Shown piece after piece: positions 9,195 to 63,392 of a DNA stretch of 63,433 nt (the stretch's first letter is position 1; every line of letters starts with the position of its first letter). Source of the DNA: a virus. A model generated the notes under the pieces. It searched no databases, was not told where the DNA came from, and saw only the letters and a list, made by a program, of their open reading frames with translations. Made by a program: the position numbers and the translations under genes. The DNA is taken from IMG/VR virus record IMGVR_UViG_3300019860_000021, positions 1 through 63,433 of that record. The stretch is one strand, 5' to 3'.

Positions 9195-10750
9195 CCCCCC
9201 ACAGGACCGAACACGATACGCACCATCTCCTCCACCGGCGGCCTCGTATTTCGCCCCGGAACCCGCGCAGGCAGCACCCGAATCTCCCTCGTCACTGCCC
9301 GCAGCGCAGCCCTACGCTGGTCCAACTCCCACTCCTGCCACCACGCCCACACATCACTGGCACCCACCAGCTGCCCCACCAGCGGATCCACCAGACGAGG
9401 CGTAGCCTCCTTACGAAGCTGCTCAAGACGACGCTGCAAAGCCCGCTCCCGAGCCGAGGCAATCCGCGGCGTCACCAGCCCCACCGCGACATCCTCCTCC
9501 AGCTGGCGCAGCTCCTCCTCAATTTTGAGGATCTCAGCACGCGCCCGCTCTATCACCCCAGGGTCCTCCTGCACCGCGAACGCCTCGACAACATCAGGCC
9601 GAGACAGCTCCCGGATGAGCAGCGCCTCTACCGCCTCATCCAGCCAGTCGGCACGCCGCGTCACATGCCCCATCGGCGCCCCCTTGTACACGCCGTTACA
9701 CCGGTACCGCCACCTGGCCGGATCATCCCCCGCAGGTCGGCCTCGTCGAGACCGGGGCACGGCTCTGATATCACCGCCGCACACGTCACAGATAGCGATC
9801 CCTGACAACAACCACCGCGCCGCCGCATCCCGAACGTACCGTTGCCCTGTCGCTGCGGACCGTTGTTTAGTGCGGTTGAGCGCGGCCTGCACCTCAGCCC
9901 ACTCCTCCACAGAAAGGATTGGCTCCCACTGGCCCTGGGCGACTTCCTTGCCCTTATAGGTGCGTATCCCCTTGAGTTCGGGGCGGCTCATCACACGGCG
10001 CAGGTTCGCCGGCACCCAGCCCAGCGACACGCGCTCCCTGCCCCTGGAGTCCACGTACTTCTCCCCCGCTACACGACCTTTATCAGTGGGGATACGGCGA
10101 CGGTTCAGCTCTTCTGCGATCCAGCTGAGAGACCTGCCCGCTCGGAGCCAGCGGGCGATCATGCGGATCACCTCGGCTTCATCCGGGTCCGGCTCTTGGC
10201 CGATCAGCCGACCGGTGGCAGGGTCGTAGCGGCGTCGATACCCGTAGCCGGGCACGCCTGCGGGCCTGCCTCGCTCGGCGTTGGCACGCTGGGAGCGGTG
10301 GATGCGTTCGGAGAGCTGATCGACTTCGAGGACGCCTTGGGTGGCCATCATGTCGAGGATGTGCATCTCGTGGGGGTTTTCGGCCCGGTAGACGCTGCTG
10401 CCCACGAGGATGCGGAGCCGACAGTCGATGGCGAGCTCTGCGAATTCTGCCCACTCGGTTCTTCTCCGGGTGGAGCGGGAGAGTTCCCAGAAACCGACGG
10501 CGTCCACCTCGCCGCGGCGGATGATCTGGAGGAGGCGCATCCAGTTGGGACGGTCCGCCTTTGAGTACCGGGATGCGGGGACGTCGTTGTCGGCGAGCTC
10601 GGCGACGATGTCCCAGCCGAGGCGGTCAACGGTGAGGCGGAGATCGGCCAGCTGTTCTTCTACGGATGCTTTTTCTCTGCGGTCGAGAGATACGCGCACG
10701 TAGAGGGCGACGCGGGTGCGCTGGTCTTCTATCAGGTCTGTGTTTTTCAC
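9191..10750 (-). CDS. int: large serine recombinase (integrase)
   Basis: Resolvase-type N-domain VALYVRVSLDRREKAS, recombinase domain, Zn ribbon CDVCGG...RYRCNG and a coiled-coil C-terminus. GTG at 10750 (the ORF track runs to 10969). Confidence 0.9.
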   Translation of the reverse strand: MKNTDLIEDQRTRVALYVRVSLDRREKASVEEQLADLRLTVDRLGWDIVAELADNDVPASRYSKADRPNWMRLLQIIRRGEVDAVGFWELSRSTRRRTEWAEFAELAIDCRLRILVGSSVYRAENPHEMHILDMMATQGVLEVDQLSERIHRSQRANAERGRPAGVPGYGYRRRYDPATGRLIGQEPDPDEAEVIRMIARWLRAGRSLSWIAEELNRRRIPTDKGRVAGEKYVDSRGRERVSLGWVPANLRRVMSRPELKGIRTYKGKEVAQGQWEPILSVEEWAEVQAALNRTKQRSAATGQRYVRDAAARWLLSGIAICDVCGGDIRAVPRSRRGRPAGDDPARWRYRCNGVYKGAPMGHVTRRADWLDEAVEALLIRELSRPDVVEAFAVQEDPGVIERARAEILKIEEELRQLEEDVAVGLVTPRIASARERALQRRLEQLRKEATPRLVDPLVGQLVGASDVWAWWQEWELDQRRAALRAVTREIRVLPARVPGRNTRPPVEEMVRIVFGPVGG

Positions 10751-10767
10751 ATCACTAATAGTGCCAT

Positions 10768-10823
10768 CTCTGGTGTGTCTATGTAATAATATGGTCGCAT
10801 ACTGATAGCTAGACACACCCGAG
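10768..10823. other. candidate attP
   Basis: ctcTGGTGTGTCTA N28 TAGACACACCcgag is a 14-nt inverted repeat with one mismatch (10/10 core). The AT-rich centre lies 18 bp upstream of the int start. Confidence 0.45.
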
Positions 10824-10900
10824 TGGGTGTGGCGGCCCCGAACTGGTGATGCGACCACCAGCCGGGACCTCACCCGATCCTGGAAGGAGCAGGATGGGCT

Positions 10901-15720: not shown

Positions 15721-17190
15721 ATGGCATCCACGGTTCCTATGTCAGATGACGTGGCGTTGGAGGAGATCGCCGCGTTTGAGGGGCGGTTGGGTGTAGAGCC
15801 TGGCCGCAACCAGCTGATGTCTGAGTTCGGTTGGGGTGGGTCTCGGGCGTCTCGGCTGCTTCGGCTGTATCGGGAGCGGAAGCAGCGGTCTGGGGCGGAG
15901 GCGGTCCGGTTGCTGCCCGGGCTTGAGGCGGACCGGTCTGAGGTGGTGGTCCAGCAGTCTGGGTCGGAGGCGGTCCGGTCTGGTGCCGTGGACCGGTCCG
16001 GTGAGCAGTCTGGTGAGCAGTCGGGTGGACCGGTCCGGAAGGCTGACGGGGTGGACCGGTCTGTCTCGTCTGGTCTGGGGCGGTCCAGTGAGGCGGTCCA
16101 GTCTGGTGGACCGGTCCAGCAGTCCGGGTCGGAGGCGGTCCGGTCTGTCTCCTCGTCTGGTCCGGTGGTCCGGTCTGGTGGAGCAGTCCGGTCTGACGGG
16201 GCGGCTCGGGGTGAGCAGTCCACCGGTCCGGACCAGGATGCTGCTGTCGGTGTCGAGGCAGCCCAGGCTGGACTGGTCCGGGTAGAAGGGCTGGTCCCGT
16301 CGCTGGACCGGTGCGAGCCTGATCCCTGGGTTGAGGGGTGGACTGGTGGTCCGGCAGACCAGTCCGAGGTGGATGGCGTGGTGGACCGGTCCGGTGTGGT
16401 GGCGCAGGCCAGCATGAGCGGACCGAATACTGGTCCGGTGGACCGGGTCGAGGCTCGGACTGAGTCGGGTGGTCTGGTCCGGTCTACCGCCCGGACGGGT
16501 GTAGCGGACCGGTCCGGTCCGGGGTCCTCTGCTGGTGTGGTGGACCGGTCCGGTCCGGGTGGTGCGGCTGGCCTGGTGGACCGGTCCGGTGGGGTAGTCC
16601 GAGACGAGGTGGACCAGTCCGGTCCAGTGGAGGCCGCCAGTGAACCGGTCCGGTCTGGGTTGGGTGAAGCCGGTCCGGCAGTCCAGGCGCAGCGGACCGG
16701 GGATGCGGACCCGCGGTCCGGCGACGGACCGGACCGCAAGCCGTGGGGGCTCATCATCGCGATCCTTGCGATCAGCCTGTCTGCGTTCACCGCCGTGTGG
16801 GGCGGATGGGTCGGACTAGGCAGAATGGTTGGGTTCGGCAAGGTAAACCTGCTGCCTGGTTTCGTTGCCGATGGTGGGTGGGCCACGATTGACCTGGCGA
16901 TCACCCTGCCCATCGGGATTGAGGCGTATGCGGCGTCCGCGCTGTATGTGGCGGTGGCTGGTCTGGTGCGAGGCGGGAGCCGTTGGTTCGCGGGGAGCAG
17001 TGCTGGGCTCTCGCTGGCCTTGGGTGCGTTCGGTCAGGCTGCCTATCACGTGCTGGATGCGCAGGGCCGCACGGTTGCGCCGGAGTGGATCGTGGTGTTT
17101 GTCAGCGTGTTGCCGGTCGTGGTGCTGGGGATGGCTGGTGTGCTGCTGCACCTGGTGCTGGAGGAGCGTAAGCATCGGCGTCGCCGTTAG
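15721..17190 (+). CDS. repeat-rich protein with C-terminal DUF2637-like (SpdB-like) 4-TM domain
   Basis: ATG at 15721. About 300 aa of degenerate (V/A)(D/R)RSG repeats. C-terminal LIIAILAISLSAFTAVWGGWVGLGRM...LPVVVLGMAGVLLHLV resembles DUF2637 of actinomycete conjugative elements. Confidence 0.7.
   Translation: MASTVPMSDDVALEEIAAFEGRLGVEPGRNQLMSEFGWGGSRASRLLRLYRERKQRSGAEAVRLLPGLEADRSEVVVQQSGSEAVRSGAVDRSGEQSGEQSGGPVRKADGVDRSVSSGLGRSSEAVQSGGPVQQSGSEAVRSVSSSGPVVRSGGAVRSDGAARGEQSTGPDQDAAVGVEAAQAGLVRVEGLVPSLDRCEPDPWVEGWTGGPADQSEVDGVVDRSGVVAQASMSGPNTGPVDRVEARTESGGLVRSTARTGVADRSGPGSSAGVVDRSGPGGAAGLVDRSGGVVRDEVDQSGPVEAASEPVRSGLGEAGPAVQAQRTGDADPRSGDGPDRKPWGLIIAILAISLSAFTAVWGGWVGLGRMVGFGKVNLLPGFVADGGWATIDLAITLPIGIEAYAASALYVAVAGLVRGGSRWFAGSSAGLSLALGAFGQAAYHVLDAQGRTVAPEWIVVFVSVLPVVVLGMAGVLLHLVLEERKHRRRR
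15895..16740 (+). repeat. array of GGACCGGTCC palindromes and CGGTCCGG half-sites
   Basis: Perfect GGACCGGTCC at 15990, 16027, 16108, 16383, 16506, 16542 and 16578. GGTCCGGACC at 16225. Many partial copies. Confidence 0.8.
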
Positions 17191-22826: not shown

Positions 22827-24062
22827 ATGCAGCATATCGGAGACCGCATCCGCGAATACCGCATGCTCCACGGCTTCACCCAAGAAGACCTCGCCGAAAA
22901 GGCGGGCATGCACCCCAACACCATCAAAAAACTCGAGCAGGGCGGCACCGCGCGCATGGACACCCTCCACCGCATCGCCCGTGCCCTTAACACAACCACT
23001 GGCAGCCTCATCTCCAGCCGCCCCCGACTGCTGGAACACGGCGACGACGGCAAACTCGACCTGCTCGACCTGCGCCGCACCATCTCCCCACCCATCACCG
23101 TGGACGGAGACCCGCTGTGCGACGACACCGAACCCCCCGACCTGCCCGCCCTCAAAGACGCCCTCATCCGTCTAGACGCCGCCTACCACGGCGACCGGTA
23201 CACCGACCTCGCGGAAATCCTGCCAGGGCTGATCCGCAGCACTCACACTGCCGTAGCCCACCACACCCACACCCCACGCGAGGCTGAGGCGCGCCGACTG
23301 CGGTCTGTGGCACTGCAGATCGCCGCCCGCTACCTCACCCAGGTGCGTGCCTATGATCTGGCGCATCTGGCGCTGGCGGACGCGACACGGGACGCTGCCG
23401 CATCCGACGATGAGATGGTCTCCGTGTCCTGCGTGGTCGGTCAGGCCTGGGTGCTGATCCGCCAGGGCCGGTTCGACGAGGCCGAACGGCTGGCTGCGCT
23501 GACTGCAGACCGTGTTGAGCCGCGCCTGTCCACCGCGACCGTGGACCACTTGTCATCCTGGGGATACCTGCTTCTGCGGGTCTCTGCTGCGGCGGCCCGC
23601 AACAACCGGCCTGATGTGTCCGCTGAGGCGCTCGGGCTGGCGCGCGTGGCTGCGGCTCGGATTGGGCGTGACCGCTACCACGAGCTGCGGAGCTGGGGGG
23701 CGTTCGGTCCGCTCACCGTGGAGCTGCGGAGCATTGAGGCGGAGTTGGTTGCGGATCGGCCTGACCGGGTGTTGGAGATGGCTGGTCGGCTGCCGTTGGA
23801 GTCGAGGTTGACCTCGTCTGACTCGTGGCACCGGCATCGCCTGGATGTGGCGGAGGCGTATGCGCGGATGCGGCGGGATAGTGAGGCGATACGAGTTCTG
23901 GCTGAGCTGCGTCGGGAGGCGCCGACGTGGCTGCGGCATCAGCGGATGGCTCGGGAGACGTTGGAGAGGGTGGTGCGGCGTCGGAAACGTGCTCTCACCA
24001 CAGAGCAGCGTGCGTTGATCGAAATTCTTGGGCGCAGACCCCGGCTTCAGTCGTGGGGTTAG
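22827..24062 (+). CDS. XRE-family HTH regulator with large helical (TPR-like) C-terminal domain
   Basis: ATG at 22827. IREYRMLHGFTQEDLAEKAGMHPNTIKKLEQG is an HTH_3 motif. About 340 aa of helical repeat-like sequence follow. The last 11 codons lie in an IS-end hairpin. Confidence 0.8.
   Translation: MQHIGDRIREYRMLHGFTQEDLAEKAGMHPNTIKKLEQGGTARMDTLHRIARALNTTTGSLISSRPRLLEHGDDGKLDLLDLRRTISPPITVDGDPLCDDTEPPDLPALKDALIRLDAAYHGDRYTDLAEILPGLIRSTHTAVAHHTHTPREAEARRLRSVALQIAARYLTQVRAYDLAHLALADATRDAAASDDEMVSVSCVVGQAWVLIRQGRFDEAERLAALTADRVEPRLSTATVDHLSSWGYLLLRVSAAAARNNRPDVSAEALGLARVAAARIGRDRYHELRSWGAFGPLTVELRSIEAELVADRPDRVLEMAGRLPLESRLTSSDSWHRHRLDVAEAYARMRRDSEAIRVLAELRREAPTWLRHQRMARETLERVVRRRKRALTTEQRALIEILGRRPRLQSWG
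24020..24058 (+). repeat. solo LE-like IS-end hairpin
   Basis: TTGAT (24015-24019), then 19 nt (cgaaattcttgggcgcaga), then ccccggcttcagtcgtgggg. Same layout as the LE of the tnpB element. Confidence 0.55.
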
Positions 24063-24127: not shown

Positions 24128-24290
24128 TTGACTTCCTCCCCACGGCTGAAGCCGGGGGATTCCAACCCTCGCGGGTTGGGTTTCCTGCTTCACCGCCAGC
24201 CGCCCGCCGGGCTTACGCCGTTTGGGTCTTACGCCGGCTCCACAGGCGTTTTACCTCTCCGCCAGCCCGGCGGCGAGGATATTGCGTGCG
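24128..24290 (-). ncRNA. omega-RNA of the tnpB element (candidate)
   Basis: Overlaps the tnpB 3' end and extends to the RE terminus, as expected for TnpB guide RNAs. Homologous to 19470-19633. Confidence 0.6.
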
Positions 24291-25357
24291 GCGTTCACGT
24301 CGCGGTCATGGGCCGCACCGCAGGCACATACCCACTCCCGAACGTTGAGCGGCATCTTCTCTTGCAGGGTGCCGCATGCCGAGCACAGCTTGGAGGAAGG
24401 GAACCAGCGGTCCACGACCAGCAGTTCTCGGCCGTACCAGGCGCACTTGTACTCCAGCATCGAGCGGAATCCCCGCCAGGATGCGTCGGAAATGGCGCGG
24501 GCCAGCCGCCCGTTCTTGACCATGTTGCGGACGGTCAGGTCCTCGATCACGACCGTTTGGTTCTCACGGACGAGCCGAGTGGTGATTTTGTGCAGGAAAT
24601 CGCGGCGCCGGTCGGTGATCCGCGCGTGGATGCGGGCGACCTTGCGGCGGGCCTTCTCCCGGTTCGCCGACCCCTTGGCCTTGCGGGACAGGGCCCGCTG
24701 CGCACGGGCGAGCTTTCGCCGGTCGCGGCGTTCGTGCCGGGGGTTGGTGATCTTCTCCCCGGTGGAGAGGGTGGCCAGGGCGGTGATCCCAGCGTCCACC
24801 CCTACCGAGGACTCCACCGGGGGAAGCGGGCGGATCTTCTCCTCGACCAGGATGGACACGAACCAGCGTCCCGCGTTGTCGCGCGACACCGTCACCGTGG
24901 ACGGCTCTGCACCTTCTGGGAGGGGACGAGACCACACGATGCGCAAGGGCTCGCTCATCTTCGCCAACGTCAGCGTGCCGTCCCGGTAGCGGAACGCCGA
25001 GCGGGTGTACTCCGCCGACGCCCGCGACTTCTTCCGGGACTTGAACGTGGGGTACTTGGCCCGCTTGGCGAAGAAGTTCGCGAACGCCGCTTGCAGGTGC
25101 CGCAATGCTTGCTGGAGCGGAACCGACGACACCTCGTTCAGGAACGCGAGTTCGGGGGTTCTCTTCCATTGGGTGAGCGCGGCCGAGGTCTCCACGTAGG
25201 AGACGCGGCGGCCCTCTTGGGTGTAGGCGCGGGTCCGCTCCTCCAGGGCCTTGTTGTAGACGAGGCGGACGCAGCCGAACGTCCGGAGCAGTTCTTCGGC
25301 CTGCTCGGGGGTCGGGTAGAAGCGGTACTTGTAGGCCCGCTTCACAAGCTGCGCCAT
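24251..25357 (-). CDS. tnpB: TnpB RNA-guided nuclease
   Basis: MAQLVKRAYKYRFYPTPEQ..., RuvC motifs VGVDAGI, VIEDL and DRDVNAARNI, Zn finger CSACG...CACG. Confidence 0.92.
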   Translation of the reverse strand: MAQLVKRAYKYRFYPTPEQAEELLRTFGCVRLVYNKALEERTRAYTQEGRRVSYVETSAALTQWKRTPELAFLNEVSSVPLQQALRHLQAAFANFFAKRAKYPTFKSRKKSRASAEYTRSAFRYRDGTLTLAKMSEPLRIVWSRPLPEGAEPSTVTVSRDNAGRWFVSILVEEKIRPLPPVESSVGVDAGITALATLSTGEKITNPRHERRDRRKLARAQRALSRKAKGSANREKARRKVARIHARITDRRRDFLHKITTRLVRENQTVVIEDLTVRNMVKNGRLARAISDASWRGFRSMLEYKCAWYGRELLVVDRWFPSSKLCSACGTLQEKMPLNVREWVCACGAAHDRDVNAARNILAAGLAER

Positions 25358-25551
25358 GTCTCACATTTTACTAGAAGATCAGTTAAGAACGATCTGCGAT
25401 GGGAGGATGGCGCTTCCTCCCCAGGGCTGAAGCCCGGGGTCTCCGCGCCAGAACTCCGATAACGCGCCAACCGCCACGAAGGAGTAAAGTACCCACCACG
25501 TCCACCGCAAAGGACGCAAAGAAGCCCCGCGCTTCCGCAAGAGCCGGGGCT

Positions 25552-27495
25552 GTGGCCAGACAACCAGTGGGGGTTGCTGACGTGGTTGATTCTACGCCGC
25601 CTTCCCGCGGCGACGCCAACCGTTCCACGCGACGGCGCTTCAACACCGCCGAACGCGTCGCAATGTACCTCGCCTCCGGCGGACGCTGCTCCAACTGCGG
25701 CACCGAACTCGAACCCGGCTGGCACGGCGACCACATCACTCCCTGGTCCCGAGGAGGGGCCACCGACTCCATCAACGGACAGGCGCTCTGCCCGTCCTGC
25801 AACCTGCGGAAAGGGGATAAGCCTTCCATGAGCTGGAATGGTCCTGACCTGCGCGAGTGGCAGCGCAAAGCGCTCGACACTTACCTCGCCCACGACCCCG
25901 CGGACTTCCTCGCGGTCGCCACACCAGGCGCAGGAAAGACCACCTTCGCACTCCGCGTCGCCCACGAACTCCTCGAATCCGGGATCGTGCAGCGCGTCGT
26001 CGTCGTGGTCCCCACCGACCACCTGAAGATCCAGTGGGCTAACTCCGCCCACCGATGCGGCATCAGCCTCGACCCCAAGATCAGCAACGCCGACGGCCTG
26101 GAAAAAGCAGCCGACTACCAAGGCATGGCCATGACCTACGCCCAGGTGGCGTCCCAACCCGACCTGCACCGAATGGGAGCCGGACAACGCAGGACCCTGG
26201 TGATCCTCGACGAGATCCACCACGCCGGCGAGGACAAGGCGTGGGGGGACGCGGTCCGCCACGCCTTCCAGCCTGCCGAACGTCGCCTGTGCCTGTCCGG
26301 CACACCGTTCCGCTCCGACAACAACCCGATCCCGTTCGTCCGCTACGACGAGGCAGGGAAGTCCAAGGCGGATTTCACCTACGGGTACGGGCGTGCGATC
26401 CGCGACGACGTGTGCCGCCAGGTCGACTTCCACTTCTACGACGGGGAAATGAAGTGGATGGACTCCGGTGCGGTCACCGCCAGCGCCAACCTGTCCGCGG
26501 ACCTGGCTGCTGGTGACCGCTCCTCGGCGTTGGAGACCGCGCTCGACCCGGACACCGGATGGATGCGCGGGGTCCTCGAAGTCGCCGACACCGCGCTGGA
26601 CAACCTACGCACTGAAGTCCCCAACGCCGGCGGCCTCGTGATCGCGTACCGGGCCTACCATGCGCGCGCCTACGCCAAGATCCTCCAGGAGCTCACCGGC
26701 GAGGAGCCGACGGTGGTACTCAGCGAGGACGGGCCGACCGCGAACCAGGGCATCGAGGCGTTCTCGCGTGGCACCGGCAAGTGGCTGGTCGCGGTGCGCA
26801 TGGTGTCGGAAGGTGTGGACGTGCCGCGGCTGGCGGTGGGCGTGTACGCGACGAAGACCCGCACCGAGATGTTTTTCCGGCAGGCGGTGGGCCGGTTCGT
26901 GCGGAAGCAGAAGGGTGAGGAGCACTCCGCGTTGTTGTTCGCGCCTGCGTTGAAGGGGTTGCAGGCGATGGCGGCGACGATCGAACAGGAGATCCAGCAC
27001 GAGATCGACCTGGAGCGTCAGGAGTACGAGAAGGCACAGCGGGAAGGCGGCGTTCAGGGGATGTTGGCGTTTCCGGCTGTGCCGTTGAGCGCGTCTGACC
27101 CCACGTTCGACCGGGCGATTCACAGCGGGCGGGAGTACGTGGGGCAGCAGCTCCACGAGCGCACGATGGAGCGGATGAAGCAGTACAACTTCCCCAGCAG
27201 CGCTTTCCAGGCGGTGCGGGCGATGGTGCACGACGAGATGCTTAAAGAGGGCGCTGTTTCTGAGGCTGTGCCCGTAGCGGTCGCGGAGCCGGAGCCGAAG
27301 TTCCGGTTGGAGAAGCGACTGCGGGACACGTTGTACCGGTTGGCGAAGCGGATCGCGATTCGGGACGGGCGTGACCATTGCGAGGTGCAGCGAGAAGTCA
27401 ACCAGGTCATGGGGGTGCGTAAGCGCAGTGAGGCGAACCTTCAGCAGTTGGAGTTGGGGATTGCCTGGGCTCAGAAGTACTTGGGGGATCGGTGA
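25552..27495 (+). CDS. HNH endonuclease fused to SF2 (DEAD/DEAH, ResIII-type) helicase; start uncertain
   Basis: HNH: CSNCGTELEPGWHGDHITPWSRGGATDSINGQALCPSCNLRKG. Helicase: ATPGAGKTT, LDEIHHAG, LSGTPFRSD, VRMVSEGVDVPR, QAVGRFVR. GTG at 25552 or 25567. The ORF track start at 25399 lies inside the IS left end. Confidence 0.85.
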   Translation: MARQPVGVADVVDSTPPSRGDANRSTRRRFNTAERVAMYLASGGRCSNCGTELEPGWHGDHITPWSRGGATDSINGQALCPSCNLRKGDKPSMSWNGPDLREWQRKALDTYLAHDPADFLAVATPGAGKTTFALRVAHELLESGIVQRVVVVVPTDHLKIQWANSAHRCGISLDPKISNADGLEKAADYQGMAMTYAQVASQPDLHRMGAGQRRTLVILDEIHHAGEDKAWGDAVRHAFQPAERRLCLSGTPFRSDNNPIPFVRYDEAGKSKADFTYGYGRAIRDDVCRQVDFHFYDGEMKWMDSGAVTASANLSADLAAGDRSSALETALDPDTGWMRGVLEVADTALDNLRTEVPNAGGLVIAYRAYHARAYAKILQELTGEEPTVVLSEDGPTANQGIEAFSRGTGKWLVAVRMVSEGVDVPRLAVGVYATKTRTEMFFRQAVGRFVRKQKGEEHSALLFAPALKGLQAMAATIEQEIQHEIDLERQEYEKAQREGGVQGMLAFPAVPLSASDPTFDRAIHSGREYVGQQLHERTMERMKQYNFPSSAFQAVRAMVHDEMLKEGAVSEAVPVAVAEPEPKFRLEKRLRDTLYRLAKRIAIRDGRDHCEVQREVNQVMGVRKRSEANLQQLELGIAWAQKYLGDR

Positions 27496-28073
27496 GTCGT
27501 CTCCTGCGTGCCCGTGGGGGCTTGGTGGACGCGTTGTCGTCGGCGTTGGACAGTGGCGGGCACGGGTTGTCCAATGTTCCGGTGTTGTTGAAGCGGCTGC
27601 TGGCCGAGGAGGGGTGGCGGGAGTTCGAGACGGTGCGGGGGGAGGTTGTGCGGCATGAGCGGTTCGAGGAGTTCGTGACTCTGCCGCCGTTGAAGGGGTT
27701 GGGGACCAGTGTTGGTCTGATCAAGCGGATCGTGGCTGACGACCGCGAGGCGGTGGACCTGCTCGACCGAGTGCTTCAGAGACAGGTCGGTCGCCCCAGG
27801 GAAATTGTGTACAATGTACACAATTCCAAAGGGCGGCCTGCTGGAAATTCTCAGGCACGTGCTCTCCGCCGTCTCCGCAAGGACGCCCCAGAGCTGCACG
27901 CCGAAGTGATCGCCGGCCGCCTCTCCGCGCACGCCGCGATGGTCAAGGCCGGATTCCGGACACGCACCATCAGCGTGCCGGTGGAGCACCCTGACCGAGT
28001 CGCGGCAGCGCTCCGCAGACACATGACCCAGGAACAGCTCGAAGAACTCGTTCGCCACCTGACAGACGACTGA
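27492..28073 (+). CDS. putative DNA-binding protein (193 aa)
   Basis: Start overlaps the helicase stop. Basic C-half GRPAGNSQARALRRLRKDAPELHAEVIAGRLSAHAAMVKAGFR. Contains a 23-bp perfect palindrome. Confidence 0.6.
   Translation: MSRLLRARGGLVDALSSALDSGGHGLSNVPVLLKRLLAEEGWREFETVRGEVVRHERFEEFVTLPPLKGLGTSVGLIKRIVADDREAVDLLDRVLQRQVGRPREIVYNVHNSKGRPAGNSQARALRRLRKDAPELHAEVIAGRLSAHAAMVKAGFRTRTISVPVEHPDRVAAALRRHMTQEQLEELVRHLTDD
27803..27825. repeat. 23-bp perfect AT-rich palindrome inside a CDS
   Basis: AATTGTGTACA a TGTACACAATT. Confidence 0.9.
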
Positions 28074-28092
28074 ACCCCGCGCGCACGTGAAC

Positions 28093-28139
28093 GGCCCTGC
28101 CTATCCTGAAAGCAGCGGCACCCCAGGAAGGGCAGGGCC
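28093..28139 (+). repeat. conserved stem-loop, copy 2
   Basis: GGCCCTGCCtatcctg...cacccc.ggaagGGCAGGGCC, 20 nt after the stop at 28073. Confidence 0.7.
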
Positions 28140-28170
28140 TATGCCGGCAGAGTACCCCGAGTCGCTATGC

Positions 28171-28204
28171 CCCCACCACTCGACGTGGTGAGGGCTTTTG
28201 GTTT
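28171..28204 (+). terminator. terminator-like hairpin
   Basis: ccccaccac tcgac gtggtgaggg followed by cttttggttt. Confidence 0.5.
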
Positions 28205-28258
28205 CTGCTGGTGGGGTGGGGTGTTGGCGAAGGCGAGAGAAATTTTCCAACCCACCAC

Positions 28259-28366
28259 TTGACGCTTCCGGTTTAGGAAGCTAGGCTCGGTGTCACGAGG
28301 TTAGGGGAACGGCCCCAGACACCCGCCCCGGGGAGCAGCCCCAGGGCCCAACCGGAAGGACCGGAA
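28259..28366 (+). promoter_or_regulatory. promoter + palindromic operator + conserved leader, copy A
   Basis: TTGACG N17 TAGGCT. The spacer is GCTTCCggtttaGGAAGC. The leader carries GGGGAACGGCCCCAG (28304) and GGGGAGCAGCCCCAG (28330), then CCGGaaggaCCGG around the SD. Confidence 0.6.
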
Positions 28367-29429: not shown

Positions 29430-29469
29430 GAGCCCCCGACCGCGATGGTCGGGGGCTCCCCCCGTTTTT
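29430..29469 (+). terminator. rho-independent terminator
   Basis: 12-bp perfect stem gagcccccgacc / ggtcgggggctc followed by ccccccgTTTTT. Ends 9 nt before the next ATG. Confidence 0.75.
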
Positions 29470-29477
29470 GAGGACTC

Positions 29478-29972
29478 ATGGAACACGGCTCTGAGCCCAC
29501 GCAGTACACAGACCCGCCCGGCATGCCCGAGGACGAGCGCATGACCCCCAGCCAGAATTTCGCGTGGTCCGCCGAGGCGGGGCTAACTGCCACGGAACAT
29601 GTCTGTACCGGAAAGGTACGGCTGTCTAGCGTGGGGGGTATGGCCGCAGATGACCCCCAGCAGATGCGTGAGCGCCTCGACCGCATCCGGTGCTCGTTCT
29701 ACCAGTGGCGGATCAGCTACGAACTCCACCGCCCGGAGGGGGGACGGTGGGTGGCGTGGCGAATCGACCCGCTGGAGGAGTGGGAGGCGGAGGCTGGCCT
29801 GACGTGTGTGGTCTCCGCATGGGACCACGATACGTTCCTGGCGAGGCTGGGCGCGGAGCAGAGGAGGCAGGATGAGCTGAGGGTCAGGCGGCGGCAGGAA
29901 GAGGAGGAGGGGAAGTCGCGCGGCCCCCTGTCCCCTATGCGGCAGCGCGGCGAGGGGTCCCGGGGTGGCTGA
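29478..29972 (+). CDS. hypothetical protein (164 aa)
   Basis: GAGGA SD. ORF with an Arg/Glu-rich C-terminus. No motif recognised. Confidence 0.55.
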   Translation: MEHGSEPTQYTDPPGMPEDERMTPSQNFAWSAEAGLTATEHVCTGKVRLSSVGGMAADDPQQMRERLDRIRCSFYQWRISYELHRPEGGRWVAWRIDPLEEWEAEAGLTCVVSAWDHDTFLARLGAEQRRQDELRVRRRQEEEEGKSRGPLSPMRQRGEGSRGG

Positions 29973-30034
29973 GGGGCGCCCCGGGGCTGTTTTCCCCGTC
30001 ACCGTGGTGGTGGCGGGGAATTTTTGTTGCACAC

Positions 30035-30136
30035 TTGTCGCTTCCGACTTAGGAAGCTATGGTGGTGTTAGTCGGGGAACAGCCCCAGACACCCGCCCCG
30101 GGGAACAGCCCCAGGGCCCGACCGGAAGGACCGGCT
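30035..30136 (+). promoter_or_regulatory. promoter + palindromic operator + conserved leader, copy B
   Basis: TTGTCG N17 TATGGT. The spacer is GCTTCCgacttaGGAAGC. GGGGAACAGCCCCAG occurs at 30074 and 30100. CCGGaaggaCCGG surrounds the SD. Near-identical to 28259-28366. Confidence 0.6.
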
Positions 30137-30449: not shown

Positions 30450-30488
30450 GGGGAGGTCGGCGCCGCGGCTGGCCTCCCCCCTTTTTTT
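30450..30488 (+). terminator. rho-independent terminator / attenuator
   Basis: ggggagg N16 cctcccc followed by cT7. Ends 9 nt before the GAAGGAG SD of the next gene. Confidence 0.75.
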
Positions 30489-30509: not shown

Positions 30510-31355
30510 ATGCTGACAGCAGCAGAGTTCAAGACGCTCCGGGAGCACCTCGGCATCCCCGGGGAATGGCTCGCACGCCGATTCGGCGTCTCCGACAGAT
30601 CGGTGCGGCACTGGGACAGCGGGAAATACCCGGTTCCCGAACGCATCAGCCGCTGGCTGCGCTGGCTGGCCGAGGAAACCGAGGCCACGGTGGCCTGGAT
30701 CGCAGAACGCCTCGAGAACAGCCCTGAGAGGCTGCTGGTCACCTACCGAAACGATGAAGAACTCGACGCCGGCGCTGCGGACGACCCCTACCGGGGTCTG
30801 TATCCGGACGATGACTTGCCGTCCGCTTGGCACCGCAGGATGGCCGCCCGTGTTGCTGAGCGCGTGCCGGGGTTGCGCCTGGTCTACCCCGGCCAGACGG
30901 CAGCGGACATTCCCGCTGCGGTCACCAGCCTTCTGGACGTGACCGCAGACTGCGACGACCGCTCCGATCCCGAGGCGTGGATCGAGGCGTGGTCGTCGCA
31001 GTCTGCCAGCCACGGGTTCGAGACGGAGCGGGCCGGTGAGGCGTACAACGGCGCCCCGATTCTTGAGGACGCAGAGGGGGAGCTCTACGTCCTGTCGTGG
31101 TGGGAGGGGCGCGTGTACGCGTCTCGGATCACCACGTGGGTGCGGGAGGCCGAGGAGGAGGGGCTGGAGGCCGTGGAGCTCCGCGACAACGGCCGGGAGG
31201 TGTGGGCGTATGCCTACGCGTCCAACAGTGCCGGGTCTATGAGCCTGGTGGACGCTCGCGTTGTGGTCGGGTCCGAGGCCACGCCCGGCGAACGCGAGGA
31301 ATGGGTGCGCGATTACGTGAGAGGCCTGGAAGCGGGCGGGTACGAGCGGGGTTGA
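30510..31355 (+). CDS. Aca2/DUF1870-like HTH regulator with extra C-terminal domain
   Basis: MLTAAEFKTLREHLGIPGEWLARRFGVSDRSVRHWDSGKYPVPERI...LLVTYRNDEEL...AWHRRMAARVA parallels the recalled Aca2 pattern (ELQAIRKLL..VSARSWQYWESGRSAVPDDV..LRFYNKLDEY..GWRLSQSVAA). Confidence 0.55.
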   Translation: MLTAAEFKTLREHLGIPGEWLARRFGVSDRSVRHWDSGKYPVPERISRWLRWLAEETEATVAWIAERLENSPERLLVTYRNDEELDAGAADDPYRGLYPDDDLPSAWHRRMAARVAERVPGLRLVYPGQTAADIPAAVTSLLDVTADCDDRSDPEAWIEAWSSQSASHGFETERAGEAYNGAPILEDAEGELYVLSWWEGRVYASRITTWVREAEEEGLEAVELRDNGREVWAYAYASNSAGSMSLVDARVVVGSEATPGEREEWVRDYVRGLEAGGYERG

Positions 31356-61556: not shown

Positions 61557-62211
61557 GGCGGGCCTCTTTCAGCACGGTTTGGATCTCGGCCACGCTCAAC
61601 GTTTTCGGGTCGCCTTTGCGTGGCGGGCGAGGTTGAGCGCGCAGACGGGCTGCTTGCTCGCGGGCCTGTTTTTCGGTTTCGGAAAGCCCCTCGCTGTTGG
61701 TGCGGAGCCGTGCGCTTGCGGCGGCGCATTTGCGGCGGGCTTCAGCGAGGGCTTGGCGTGCGGTGTGGGAGCGCCGGTCGGTGTCGGGTTTGGTGGTTGC
61801 GGGGTCGACCATGCGTGGGCTTCCAGCGCGGAGGTGTTCTCGGCGTGTTTTAGTGACCGGGTCCAGGCCGGATTCGAGGGAGAGCGGGCTGGTGGCTGCG
61901 GCGCGTAGCGCGGCGCGGGGTGCGGCGCGTAGCGCGTGCAGGTAGCCGACGACGTCGTCCGGGTTGGGGGGTGGGGGAACGACGTAGTGCTTGAGTTTTT
62001 CGGCGCGCATGGCTCGGACTTCGTCTTGGATCACGGCGGGGGTGATCCATGGGGTTTTGCGGATGGCGTTGAGGAGCGCGGCGTGGGCTTCGTCCCAGTC
62101 GATGTCGGCGAGGGCTGCTGCCCAGGCCTTGGGGGTGTCCCATTCGAAGTTGATGTGGGGTGCGGCGGCCTTCATTTTTTCGACGAAGGCGACGGCTTGG
62201 GTTGGGGTCAT
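61543..62211 (-). CDS. hypothetical protein (222 aa), replication-module accessory
   Basis: Coupled (4-nt overlap) to the initiator-like gene. Basic C-half. Confidence 0.55.
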   Translation of the reverse strand: MTPTQAVAFVEKMKAAAPHINFEWDTPKAWAAALADIDWDEAHAALLNAIRKTPWITPAVIQDEVRAMRAEKLKHYVVPPPPNPDDVVGYLHALRAAPRAALRAAATSPLSLESGLDPVTKTRREHLRAGSPRMVDPATTKPDTDRRSHTARQALAEARRKCAAASARLRTNSEGLSETEKQAREQAARLRAQPRPPRKGDPKTLSVAEIQTVLKEARRGQS

Positions 62212-63392
62212 GCGGTTCCCTCCTGCATGGCGCGTTCGAGTTGTTCGGCTTCGGCGAGTGCGTCGGCGAACATCGCCTGGGTGTTTTGTTGCCGGTAGGT
62301 GAGTGGTCGGGCGTCGGGGAAGGCCACGACGTTGCTGCCGTTGGGGGTGTTCATGACCTCGTTGACGACGCTGGGCAGGGTTGAGGGGTGGAGCCCCTTG
62401 GTCATCCAGTGGGCGAGGCCGCGTCGGATGTCGTCGGGGTGGATGCCGTCGTTGAGGAGGGTCTTGATTTCTTTAGCGACGTGTCCGATGACGCGGCTGG
62501 GGGGTCGTTTGGGGCAGCGGTCGAGCCATTCGCCGATGAGGGTTTGGGTGGTGGGGGGTGGGGTGTGCGGCGCTGTTGCGCCCGAAGACGTAGTCTTCGG
62601 TTCTCTTTCCTGTACCAGAAGACTCCCGGAACCTTTTACACCTACACCTACACCGGACCCTTCCGGGAAGGGTTTCGGGAACCCTTCCGGGAACCCTTCC
62701 GGGAACCCTTCCCGCGTGGTCTGTTGGGGTTCGTTGACCTGCTGTTTTGTGGTTTTGGGGTGCAAGGGTTGGCTGTCACCTCCTCTGTGGTTGGGGTTGG
62801 GGTCGGAAATGGGCTGGTGGAAAGGGTTGGGAGACCCTTCCTGGAAGGGTTCCTGGAAGGGTTCCGGGAACCCTTCGGGAAGGGTTTCGGGAAGGGTTCC
62901 AGCAACCTTTTCGATGAGAGCGCGGGTGCGCTCAGCGCGCTCGGTCGGCAGTTCGTCGATGGGGAGCCGAGACAACTCGTAGCGGAGTACAGCGCGCAGG
63001 GTGGGGGACACGGTGGACTGGACGTGGCCGAGCGCGGACTTGAGTACGTTCGGCTGTTTCCACAGTCCGTCGTGGCGGATGAAAGTGCGCACGAGGACTT
63101 CTTCGGTGTCCTCGTCTACGACCACGTACCAGTACGCGTTGAGGCGTTCCAGGGCGGCGGTGACCCGGGGGCCGGTCATGCCGTGGGCGAAGCGTGCCCA
63201 GCGGCGTTCTTGGAGGGGGAGGACACCCGCGGTGTTGATGTTGGGTTGGGAGAGCAGGACGAAGTACAGCCATTGAGCGTCGACGTCCAGTTCGGTTTTG
63301 AACTTCTCGTTTTGCCAGATGGAGCTTCGTAGTTGGGCGTAGTTTCGGGCCACTGGTTCTCCCTTGCTGATGGTCATGGTTTGCTTTTGCAA
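62208..63392 (-). CDS. initiator-like winged-helix protein with internal iterons
   Basis: N-terminal YAQLRSSIWQNEKFKTELDVDAQWLYFVLLSQPNINTAGVLPLQERRWARF (organizer/Rep-like). Central EGFPEGFPEGFP linker is encoded by the iterons. Start at 63392 (TTG) or 63377 (ATG), inside the terminal overlap. Confidence 0.6.
   Translation of the reverse strand: MQKQTMTISKGEPVARNYAQLRSSIWQNEKFKTELDVDAQWLYFVLLSQPNINTAGVLPLQERRWARFAHGMTGPRVTAALERLNAYWYVVVDEDTEEVLVRTFIRHDGLWKQPNVLKSALGHVQSTVSPTLRAVLRYELSRLPIDELPTERAERTRALIEKVAGTLPETLPEGFPEPFQEPFQEGSPNPFHQPISDPNPNHRGGDSQPLHPKTTKQQVNEPQQTTREGFPEGFPEGFPKPFPEGSGVGVGVKGSGSLLVQEREPKTTSSGATAPHTPPPTTQTLIGEWLDRCPKRPPSRVIGHVAKEIKTLLNDGIHPDDIRRGLAHWMTKGLHPSTLPSVVNEVMNTPNGSNVVAFPDARPLTYRQQNTQAMFADALAEAEQLERAMQEGTA
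62653..62900. repeat. two clusters of 12-bp-phased GGAA-N3-TTCC iterons
   Basis: Cluster A 62653-62712, including cgggaacccttc x3 in tandem (62676-62711). Cluster B 62831-62900 (tggaagggttcc x2, gggaacccttc, gggaagggtttc, gggaagggttcc). Nearby are ccgaagac gta gtcttcgg (62582-62600) and tacacc x3 (62637-62654). Confidence 0.8.

Follow-up and report, generated by a model that had tools for sequence, protein, structure and literature searches.

The Aca2 protein of Pectobacterium phage ZF40 represses its anti-CRISPR operon through a palindrome, IR1 (TTCG-N6-CGAA), located inside the N17 promoter (PMC6765145). The Aca2 dimer also attaches to a pair of conserved hairpins within the 5′ untranslated region (5′UTR), blocking the ribosome-binding site (RBS), and binding to such hairpins has been demonstrated for both Aca2 and Aca1 (PMC13551039). 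The published layout places the DNA motif in the promoter, the transcription start 10–15 nucleotides (nt) later, the RNA motif right after it and the start codon at a fixed position; such pairs of DNA and RNA sites precede neighbouring operons too, and the RNA motifs are also found between genes (PMC13551039). The “proteo” and “actino” 5′UTR RNA motifs come from Birkholz et al. 2019 NAR (PMC6765145), Birkholz et al. 2024 Nature (cited through PMC13551039) and Feussner et al. 2026 NAR (PMC13551039). Here we describe two nearly identical promoter-operator-leader units in the IMG/VR virus record IMGVR_UViG_3300019860_000021, a stretch of 63,433 nt that was analysed over its whole length and is called the window below. 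We read each unit as a repressible promoter followed by a structured leader, by which an Aca2-like regulator would control two operons of probable anti-defence genes. We hold this reading with reasonable though by no means strong confidence; the promoter/operator and the regulator's identity are the parts we trust more, and RNA binding is the part we trust less.

The window spans a whole phage genome, circularly closed, and its first 127 bases recur at its end. Its relative, Thermobifida phage P1312, is ~91–98% identical to it across most of its length and also carries two units; the published description of P1312 mentions neither promoters nor these repeats. In the rightward non-structural arm, both units of the window occupy positions close to the 3′ end, immediately before the convergent lysis genes. 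An initial annotation, made from the letters alone, had claimed a duplicated unit at 28240–28366 and 30015–30136, and all the features it described were recovered at those positions (Table 1). Each unit is ~125 nt long and consists of a −35 element, a 17-nt spacer holding the palindrome GCTTCC-N6-GGAAGC, a −10 element of the form TANNNT and a 66-nt leader. From the position of the −10 alone, transcription is predicted to start ~13 nt past the palindrome (~28294–28295 in unit 1), with the first leader hairpin 1–6 nt further on. The AAATTTT block of unit 1 might, by its position, function as an UP element.

Table 1. Positions of the elements and genes of the two units in the window (−35 and −10, promoter elements; SD, Shine-Dalgarno sequence; aa, amino acids; ORF, open reading frame; H1 and H2, first and second leader hairpins; T1–T3, terminators or terminator-like hairpins; HTH, helix-turn-helix)
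Feature	Position	Strand	Remarks
A/T block AAATTTT, unit 1	28240–28246	+	13–19 nt 5′ of the −35; common to both unit types
−35 TTGACG, unit 1	28259–28264	+	TTGNCG kept in all promoter-bearing copies
Operator palindrome GCTTCC-N6-GGAAGC, unit 1	28264–28281	+	Fills the 17-nt promoter spacer
−10 TAGGCT, unit 1	28282–28287	+	TANNNT; positions 3–5 vary across copies
H1, unit 1	28300–28320	+	GUU-A-GGGG-AACGG-CCCC-A-GAC; predicted folds
15-mers, unit 1	28304 and 28330	+	Cores of H1 and H2
H2, unit 1	28325–28347	+	GCCC-C-GGGG-AGCAG-CCCC-A-GGGC; most robust element in every fold
SD hairpin CCGG-AAGGA-CCGG, unit 1	28352–28364	+	SD GGAAGGA at 28354–28360
ATG of the first gene of unit 1	28367	+	
First gene of unit 1, 332 aa	28367–29365	+	Acidic N-terminal domain A, Crn4-like ring-nuclease domain, helical domain, CxxCxGxG zinc-finger tail
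T1, terminator-like hairpin	29430–29470	+	After the first gene of unit 1; 12-bp perfect inverted repeat
Second ORF of unit 1, 164-aa open frame	29478–29972	+	Conserved core is the 3′ ~110 codons
T2, intrinsic terminator	29992–30025	+	Directly 5′ of unit 2; 13-pair stem, then TTTTT
Promoter/operator, unit 2	30035–30063	+	−35 TTGTCG 30035–30040; palindrome 30040–30057; −10 TATGGT 30058–30063
Leader, unit 2	30071–30134	+	H1 30071–30090; H2 30095–30117; SD hairpin 30122–30134
15-mers, unit 2	30074 and 30100	+	
ATG of the gene of unit 2	30137	+	
Gene of unit 2, 100 aa	30137–30439	+	No known family; in relatives fused to a domain A paralogue
T3, terminator-like hairpin	30450–30488	+	Between the 100-aa and regulator genes; 12-pair stem, then CCTTTTTTT
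Aca2-like regulator, 281 aa	30510–31355	+	N-terminal Aca2/YdiL-family HTH of ~127 aa and C-terminal extension; last gene behind unit 2

The units stand out clearly from the rest of the genome. In its 63 kb the palindrome occurs at these two sites only (0.23 expected), and the four exact matches to the 15-mer repeated in the leaders all lie in the units; with up to two mismatches allowed, seven matches are observed, a number that no shuffle reached. The 66-nt leader is 92% identical between the two units, and the similarity ends at the start codons, beyond which the flanking coding DNA does not align. A covariance model built from related leaders and searched over the window retrieves both units (E=5e-29 and 4e-25) and nothing else, the next best hit having E=0.08. 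Rfam 15 gave no match at gathering thresholds over the whole window and nothing meaningful at E≤10 for either unit. The promoter is not called by a strict Escherichia coli consensus scan; it suits the looser actinobacterial form TTGACN / TANNNT.

Comparison with relatives gave ~27 distinct copies of the unit from IMG/VR and metagenome contigs (numbered with L below), collected by pattern scans, BLAST and protein-guided look-ups. In none of these copies do the arms of the palindrome differ, and its variation falls on the six to seven central bases; it fills the 17–18-nt spacer of every promoter-bearing copy. The −10 keeps T1, A2 and T6 and takes the forms TAGGCT, TATGGT, TAAACT, TAGAGT, TATAGT and TAGACT. 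Because the −35, these three −10 positions and the palindrome arms are conserved and the palindrome centre is free, we read the element as a promoter; a genuine housekeeping-type promoter into which an operator is built would be expected to show such a pattern. Mean pairwise identity is higher in the leader (90%) than in the gene downstream of it (84%). One contig, L090, has three units. No copy was found in Thermobifida phage P318, and when 185,579 representative bacterial genomes were scanned for the twin-hairpin pattern, the hits were all unrelated tandem repeats and none was a copy in a host or a prophage.

In the leader RNA, each 15-mer is the core of one hairpin. The general forms are GUY-[A/G]-GGGG-ARCNG-CCCC-A-GAC for H1 and GCCC-C-GGGG-ARCRR-CCCC-A-GGGC for H2, in which four inner and three to four outer pairs surround a one-by-one mismatch, and the SD sequence GGAAGGA starts six bases past H2. 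The hairpins occur in all copies, and folding predictions keep both intact at 55 °C, which is in the growth range of the host. The support for these structures is indirect. Variation is found at 3 of 30 paired columns as against 12 of 20 unpaired ones (Fisher p=3e-4). The substitutions in the stems are C-to-U changes opposite G, which fits a plus-strand RNA, with the sole exception of C34 to A in the unit 1 copy of L026; in two copies the unpaired A is deleted, giving a continuous stem. The initial annotation had argued from the conserved leader for regulation at the RNA level in addition to operator control, and the comparison supports this proposal, as the stems are kept while loops and linkers vary and the arrangement matches the mechanism of the Aca2 family. 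It had also described a CCGG-aagga-CCGG hairpin that displays or occludes the SD. This hairpin is indeed present in both units, yet it is not universal, being found in 14 of 22 related copies. As for the two states, display agrees with a mean predicted unpaired probability of 0.82 for the SD and occlusion was not borne out. The SD hairpin shows compensatory variants, namely UCCGA..UCGGA in L005 and L026 and, relative to CCGG..CCGG, CUGG..CCAG in Streptomyces phage Gilgamesh, as well as a G·U pair in L032. That the leader is coding sequence was rejected, since the linker, the loops and the surroundings of the SD all tolerate indels of 1–2 nt.

In several lineages the hairpin module also stands between genes and without a promoter, and the microhomology junction with a terminator arm that created the copy differs from one to the next. 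They comprise half of H1 with H2 and the SD in L014 and L086, H2 with the SD in L097, and the complete leader in L090 and L091, where it begins at the predicted transcript start; in L019 the complete leader follows an unrelated hairpin. In L097 (ENA contig NODE_769, 20.7 kb) positions 9850–10860 hold a Crn4-like gene and then an H2-SD-domain-A module, on an element that also encodes a GntR and a TraA-like protein. This context indicates that the module moves beyond P1312-like phages.

An independent test was made by scanning viral contigs for the operator plus the −10, the other parts of the unit not being required. Most of the 40 hits were chance matches in low-GC DNA, and five unrelated high-GC phages had the full arrangement: Gilgamesh, which was found by tblastn, and contigs L111, L115, L134 and L139. 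All five have TTGNNN, GCTTCC-N6-GGAAGC, TANNNT, a single hairpin of the H1 type (GGUCA-GGGG-N4-5-CCCC-AGACC, the loops of which vary freely), an SD hairpin and an ATG, and in all five an Aca2-like gene, 36–41% identical to that of the window, lies on the same strand 0.5–1.3 kb downstream of the operator. Two of them, L115 and L134, also have an H2-type hairpin with an SD hairpin between genes, with no promoter. Operator, hairpin module and Aca2-like gene co-occur in this way in six phage lineages; no motif of this kind was seen at L102, an Aca2-like locus of chromosomal appearance. From the single-hairpin leaders of the five phages, the wider motif is made of two hairpins, the second of which holds the RBS, and the twin 15-mers of the Thermobifida phages are the first of these duplicated in tandem.

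The identity of the regulator was approached at several levels. Searched as a single 281-aa sequence against solved structures, its best relevant matches, the top four, are all Aca2 (PDB E=9e-4). An exhaustive search collected 853 relatives, many of them stand-alone proteins of 115–150 residues. A profile built from 51 relatives matches the Aca2 structures 8w35, 7vjo, 7b5j and 7ezy over ~93 residues, with E from 1e-13 to 3e-12, and 42 of the 51 match the Pfam family Aca2_YdiL (PF08965). Among the HTH proteins that the initial annotation had listed as possible binders, the one encoded at 30510 proved Aca2-like by profile, while that at 27492 is without an HTH signature. The 281-aa protein is our candidate repressor of both units.

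There are two units in the window and three in L090, promoter-less copies are seen between genes, and the predicted anatomy of the locus fits the published Aca2 layout. As in the acrIF8-aca2 operon of ZF40, the promoter is of a strong housekeeping type with an N6-spaced palindrome in a 17-nt spacer, conserved hairpins are predicted to extend from the start of the 5′UTR to the RBS, and the gene of an Aca2-family HTH protein closes the operon at its 3′ end. A neighbouring operon without a regulator gene has the same pair of DNA and RNA sites before it, RNA motifs are found in intergenic positions too, and the cargo includes what is plausibly an anti-defence enzyme. The differences are also evident. 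The half-site is CTTCC/GGAAG here and TTCG/CGAA in ZF40; the Thermobifida phages have three hairpins (the tandem duplicate H1/H2 and the SD hairpin) where known systems have two; the regulator has 281 aa with an extra C-terminal region, as compared with ~115–136 aa; a terminator separates cargo and regulator; and in place of a known anti-CRISPR (Acr) protein the cargo is a Crn4-like ring nuclease.

On this model, upon infection host RNA polymerase would start at the strong housekeeping-type promoter (TTGNCG, 17 nt, TANNNT), giving an mRNA that begins a few bases 5′ of H1 and carries H1, H2 and a strong SD, often in the loop of the third hairpin. The products would be a Crn4-like ring nuclease with extra domains and small proteins, and read-through of a leaky T3 would supply the Aca2-like protein. 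As its dimer accumulates, it would bind the spacer palindrome and block transcription of both units. By analogy with Aca2, it may also bind the leader hairpins next to the SD and block translation of existing mRNA, and the same translational block may act at the promoter-less copies of the hairpin module between genes.

Several observations weigh against this model. Promoter, binding and repression are all predicted from sequence. The window protein taken alone stays under the Pfam Aca2_YdiL threshold (E=0.01), and it carries an extra C-terminal extension of ~150 aa. A good terminator stands between the 100-aa and the regulator genes, unlike compact acr-aca operons, and the GGGG/CCCC stems of the hairpins do not resemble the arms of the DNA operator. 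Within the family, H1 and H2 show no compensatory double changes, their stems never varying among close relatives. The folding energies of the leaders are not better than those of shuffled controls (z −0.5 to −1.2), a test that is uninformative at ~70% G+C. The SD is almost equally open with the native (0.82) and with a shuffled upstream sequence (0.76), for which reason a role of the upstream leader as an “insulator” of the SD was rejected. Linker variants are common to unit 1 and unit 2 contexts within genomes, and this shuffling indicates that gene conversion contributes to the high identity of the leaders. There is also a second regulator to consider, a 404-aa XRE-TPR protein (22827–24035) with a strong HTH_3 domain, weak TPR matches and 434 Cro/repressor-like matches, the gene of which lies immediately upstream of unit 1 in P1312 and the majority of relatives; it adjoins unit 1 and is co-directional with it in P1312, L002–L004, L090, L096 and L099. 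It seems improbable to us that this protein, as a ligand- or peptide-sensing repressor, binds the operator in place of the Aca2-like protein. The geometry of the operator would suit a 434-type dimer, but the palindrome was not found in the upstream region of the XRE-TPR gene itself, and 4.2 kb of inserted DNA lies between that gene and unit 1 in the window. In the five unrelated phages an Aca2-like gene is near the operator in every case, no search for XRE-TPR having been made there.

If the operator reading is granted, the leader could still be a constitutive module, which is the main competing explanation and one that we think rather unlikely. The hairpins would protect the mRNA from 5′-end-dependent decay (by RNase J or E) at 55 °C and the exposed strong SD would ensure translation, so that the palindrome would remain an operator and the RNA would not be a regulatory target. 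The proximity of H1 to the predicted transcription start (1–6 nt), the predicted stability at 55 °C and the predicted open SD all suit this explanation, as do the loops, which vary more than the stems as though structure mattered over loop sequence, and the different 5′ hairpin that P318-type phages have before the homologous gene. It does not explain, however, why hairpin and SD are kept at promoter-less sites within operons in several independent lineages, why their spacing is fixed, or why, in phages that are unrelated, the module is accompanied by an Aca2-like gene and an identical operator; the binding of Aca2 and Aca1 to such hairpins (PMC13551039) is a further point against it. A function in antitermination, with the twin hairpins acting on RNA polymerase like put of HK022 or like boxB with an N-like protein, would allow read-through of the terminators before the second ORF of unit 1 and before the regulator gene, and genes with no visible promoter do lie behind T1 and T3. 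Like lambda nut and HK022 put, the units occur in two copies per genome just past promoters (early promoters in the case of nut and put), each with two small stem-loops of nascent RNA bearing an internal mismatch. Yet no boxA-like element is present in the leader, no Rfam match was obtained at E≤10, no N-like protein was identified, and the U-tract of T1 is displaced from its main stem, so T1 may simply be leaky. Gilgamesh-type leaders have a single hairpin of this kind. The hairpins keep a constant place beside the SD, and versions with one hairpin and copies between genes stand directly before start codons, which points to translation; an identification with nut or put was rejected on these grounds, and we regard antitermination as very improbable. 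We give equally little credence to the idea that leader identity is mainly a by-product of recombination, with gene conversion and joints for the shuffling of accessory genes and no function beyond promoter and SD. The linker variants shared between unit types within genomes, the hybrid unit of L031 (unit 2 promoter joined to a unit 1 3′ end), the three different microhomology junctions with terminator arms and the mosaic genes downstream would all follow from it. What it fails to account for is the strong bias of variation toward unpaired positions, the compensatory changes in the SD hairpin and the persistence of the hairpin-SD layout in phages too diverged for conversion.

Two other known systems resemble the leaders in part. 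The start-associated sequences (SAS) and their extended form (ESAS) in mycobacteriophages of Cluster K (Pope et al. 2011, PMC3203893) likewise place an SD motif before the starts of non-structural genes in an actinobacteriophage, often have an inverted repeat upstream and are linked to genes of different families. SAS is a 13-mer, GGGATAGGAGCCC, found 3–7 nt before start codons in 11–19 copies per genome, and by the authors' account RNA pairing is not supported by the arms of ESAS (PMC3203893). Unlike the units, SAS/ESAS has no promoter, operator or Aca2-like regulator linked to it; the units have 2–3 copies per genome and clear stems, and an identity with SAS/ESAS was rejected, the leader sequence being different and only two copies being present in the window. 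The guanidine-II riboswitch (mini-ykkC) also consists of two tandem, nearly identical GC-rich hairpins with a short linker, directly 5′ of an SD. Its ACGR tetraloops are missing here and cmscan returned no match at E≤10, so this candidate was rejected as well. The loops found in the leaders are AACGG, AACAG, AGCAG, AACCG, AGCCG, ACAGU, AUUAG and AAAG; in contrast to guanidine-II, these ARCNG-like pentaloops vary freely, the loops of the two hairpins cannot kiss, and the genes that follow are phage accessory genes. Mimicry of CRISPR repeats and hairpins of insertion sequence (IS) ends were dropped, the 26-nt period and G-first stems being unsuited.

Regarding the history of the units, the genes behind units 1 and 2 in relatives are paralogues that share only 35% amino-acid identity, and for this reason we consider the duplication old. 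The initial annotation had seen a danger to its reading in a larger, recent duplication including coding sequence. The duplication did at first take in coding sequence, but with the paralogues at 35% identity it is not a recent one. The near-identity of the leaders has been kept by selection, by gene conversion or by both.

Turning to the genes that the units precede, standard family searches were silent on most of them. The family profile of the 332-aa first product of unit 1 matches the PDB sequences of Crn4a, Crn4 and Crn4b, with E between 4.5e-8 and 5.4e-7. The Crn4-like domain retains the conserved T/H motif, and the NLTPH motif, in which the catalytic histidine lies, does not vary within the family. 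Its AlphaFold model is of low confidence (pLDDT 60), with Crn4b (9r7b, 31% identity) as the best Foldseek match; only this match was used, because it agrees with the sequence profile. The protein also has a weak DnaJ_CXXCXGXG match and an acidic N-terminal extension of 95 residues. Crn4b orthologues of phages and plasmids, some with N-terminal extensions of 60–80 residues, have been proposed as likely anti-CRISPRs (PMC12830947). The Crn4-like product of unit 1 is probably an anti-CRISPR or an anti-cyclic-nucleotide enzyme. For the 164-aa ORF behind it no family match was found. Its first ~30 codons (..TDPPGMPEDERMTP..; 29478–29560) resemble the N-terminus of an Aca2-like gene, positions 29503–29576 are 85% identical over 74 nt to the start of Gilgamesh gene 87, which is Aca2-like, and L004 and L014 have lost the 5′ part by deletion. 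The likeness to the Gilgamesh gene suggests that unit 1 once had its own copy of the regulator; the 5′ part is probably a remnant of this second copy and the real gene probably starts near 29642. Within T1, two mutually exclusive hairpins can form, the 12-bp stem with its U-tract ~7 nt off and an overlapping 6-bp stem directly before TTTTT, and these alternatives could provide conditional termination.

Phage P318 and related contigs have a homologue of the Crn4-like gene, but with another promoter and leader. It is worth noting that P318-type Thermobifida phages encode their own sigma factor and have another repeated promoter before successive small genes, one of which is the Crn4-like homologue (L093 1975–2045 and 2425–2470; L083, that is P318, 40620–40700). 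The spacer of this promoter is also palindromic (CTTGCNCAG(T/C)ACTGNNCAAT), and a terminator lies 5′ of each.

The surroundings of the units are rich in other elements. At 24128–25460 the window carries an IS605-family element with a TnpB ORF on the minus strand (24251–25357; OrfB_IS605 and a Cas12f1-like TNB domain). P1312 has the same element elsewhere, directly past the terminator that ends the Crn4-like gene, and the ORF after this is truncated by it; in L099 a tnpB gene adjoins a decayed copy of unit 2. These are three different insertions near hairpin-rich units; BLAST found no similarity between the leader and the IS element. Between the gene for the XRE-TPR regulator, whose architecture (434-type HTH plus weak TPR) recalls ligand- or peptide-sensing HTH-TPR receptors, and unit 1, a 2.8-kb segment (25460–28235) that is missing in P1312 encodes a 698-aa fusion of HNH endonuclease and SF2 helicase (25399–27495) and a 193-aa protein (27492–28073) for which no family match was found. 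Elsewhere in the non-structural arm, positions 15880–16600 hold a dense cluster of short direct repeats, GGTGGACCGGTCCGGT-like, of families D3, D8, D10, D12 and D20. Two arrays of 12-nt repeats (GGGAACCCTTCC-like) at 62644–62914 resemble binding sites and encode PEGF/PEPF peptide repeats inside a 394-aa minus-strand ORF (62208–63392) with no Pfam match. These 12-nt repeats (62.6–62.9 kb), which contain CCTTCCGG, were considered as further operators and rejected because they encode PEGF peptide repeats.

The scheme of control proposed here is itself known; what is new is the thermophilic actinobacterial host group, the half-site, the three-hairpin leader, the long regulator and the Crn4-like cargo. 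A bolder version, which we advance tentatively and consider doubtful, is that Aca2 control has been expanded in these phages, the duplicated hairpin and the double-length regulator giving cooperative or signal-responsive control of translation, and the portable hairpin-SD module, copied before single cistrons, placing new anti-defence genes under the regulator. Were this so, the module could act as a handle in the search for unknown anti-defence genes of actinobacterial phages, for which the candidates would be the acidic domain A with its paralogue, the 100-aa protein, the second ORF's core of ~110 aa and the Crn4-helical-zinc-finger fusion.

If our reading is correct, Aca2-type dual control of DNA and RNA extends to the phages of thermophilic actinobacteria, where it would be linked not to a classical Acr but to a counter-measure against cyclic-oligoadenylate signalling, as in type III CRISPR and possibly CBASS-like systems. 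The operator and the GGGG-N5-CCCC hairpin, followed by an SD hairpin and a downstream Aca2-like gene, would mark a candidate anti-defence island, and this signature may be used to mine phages of Streptomyces, Thermobifida and their relatives for new anti-defence proteins. The units would likewise offer a compact repressible expression cassette for a 55 °C actinobacterial host of biotechnological interest.

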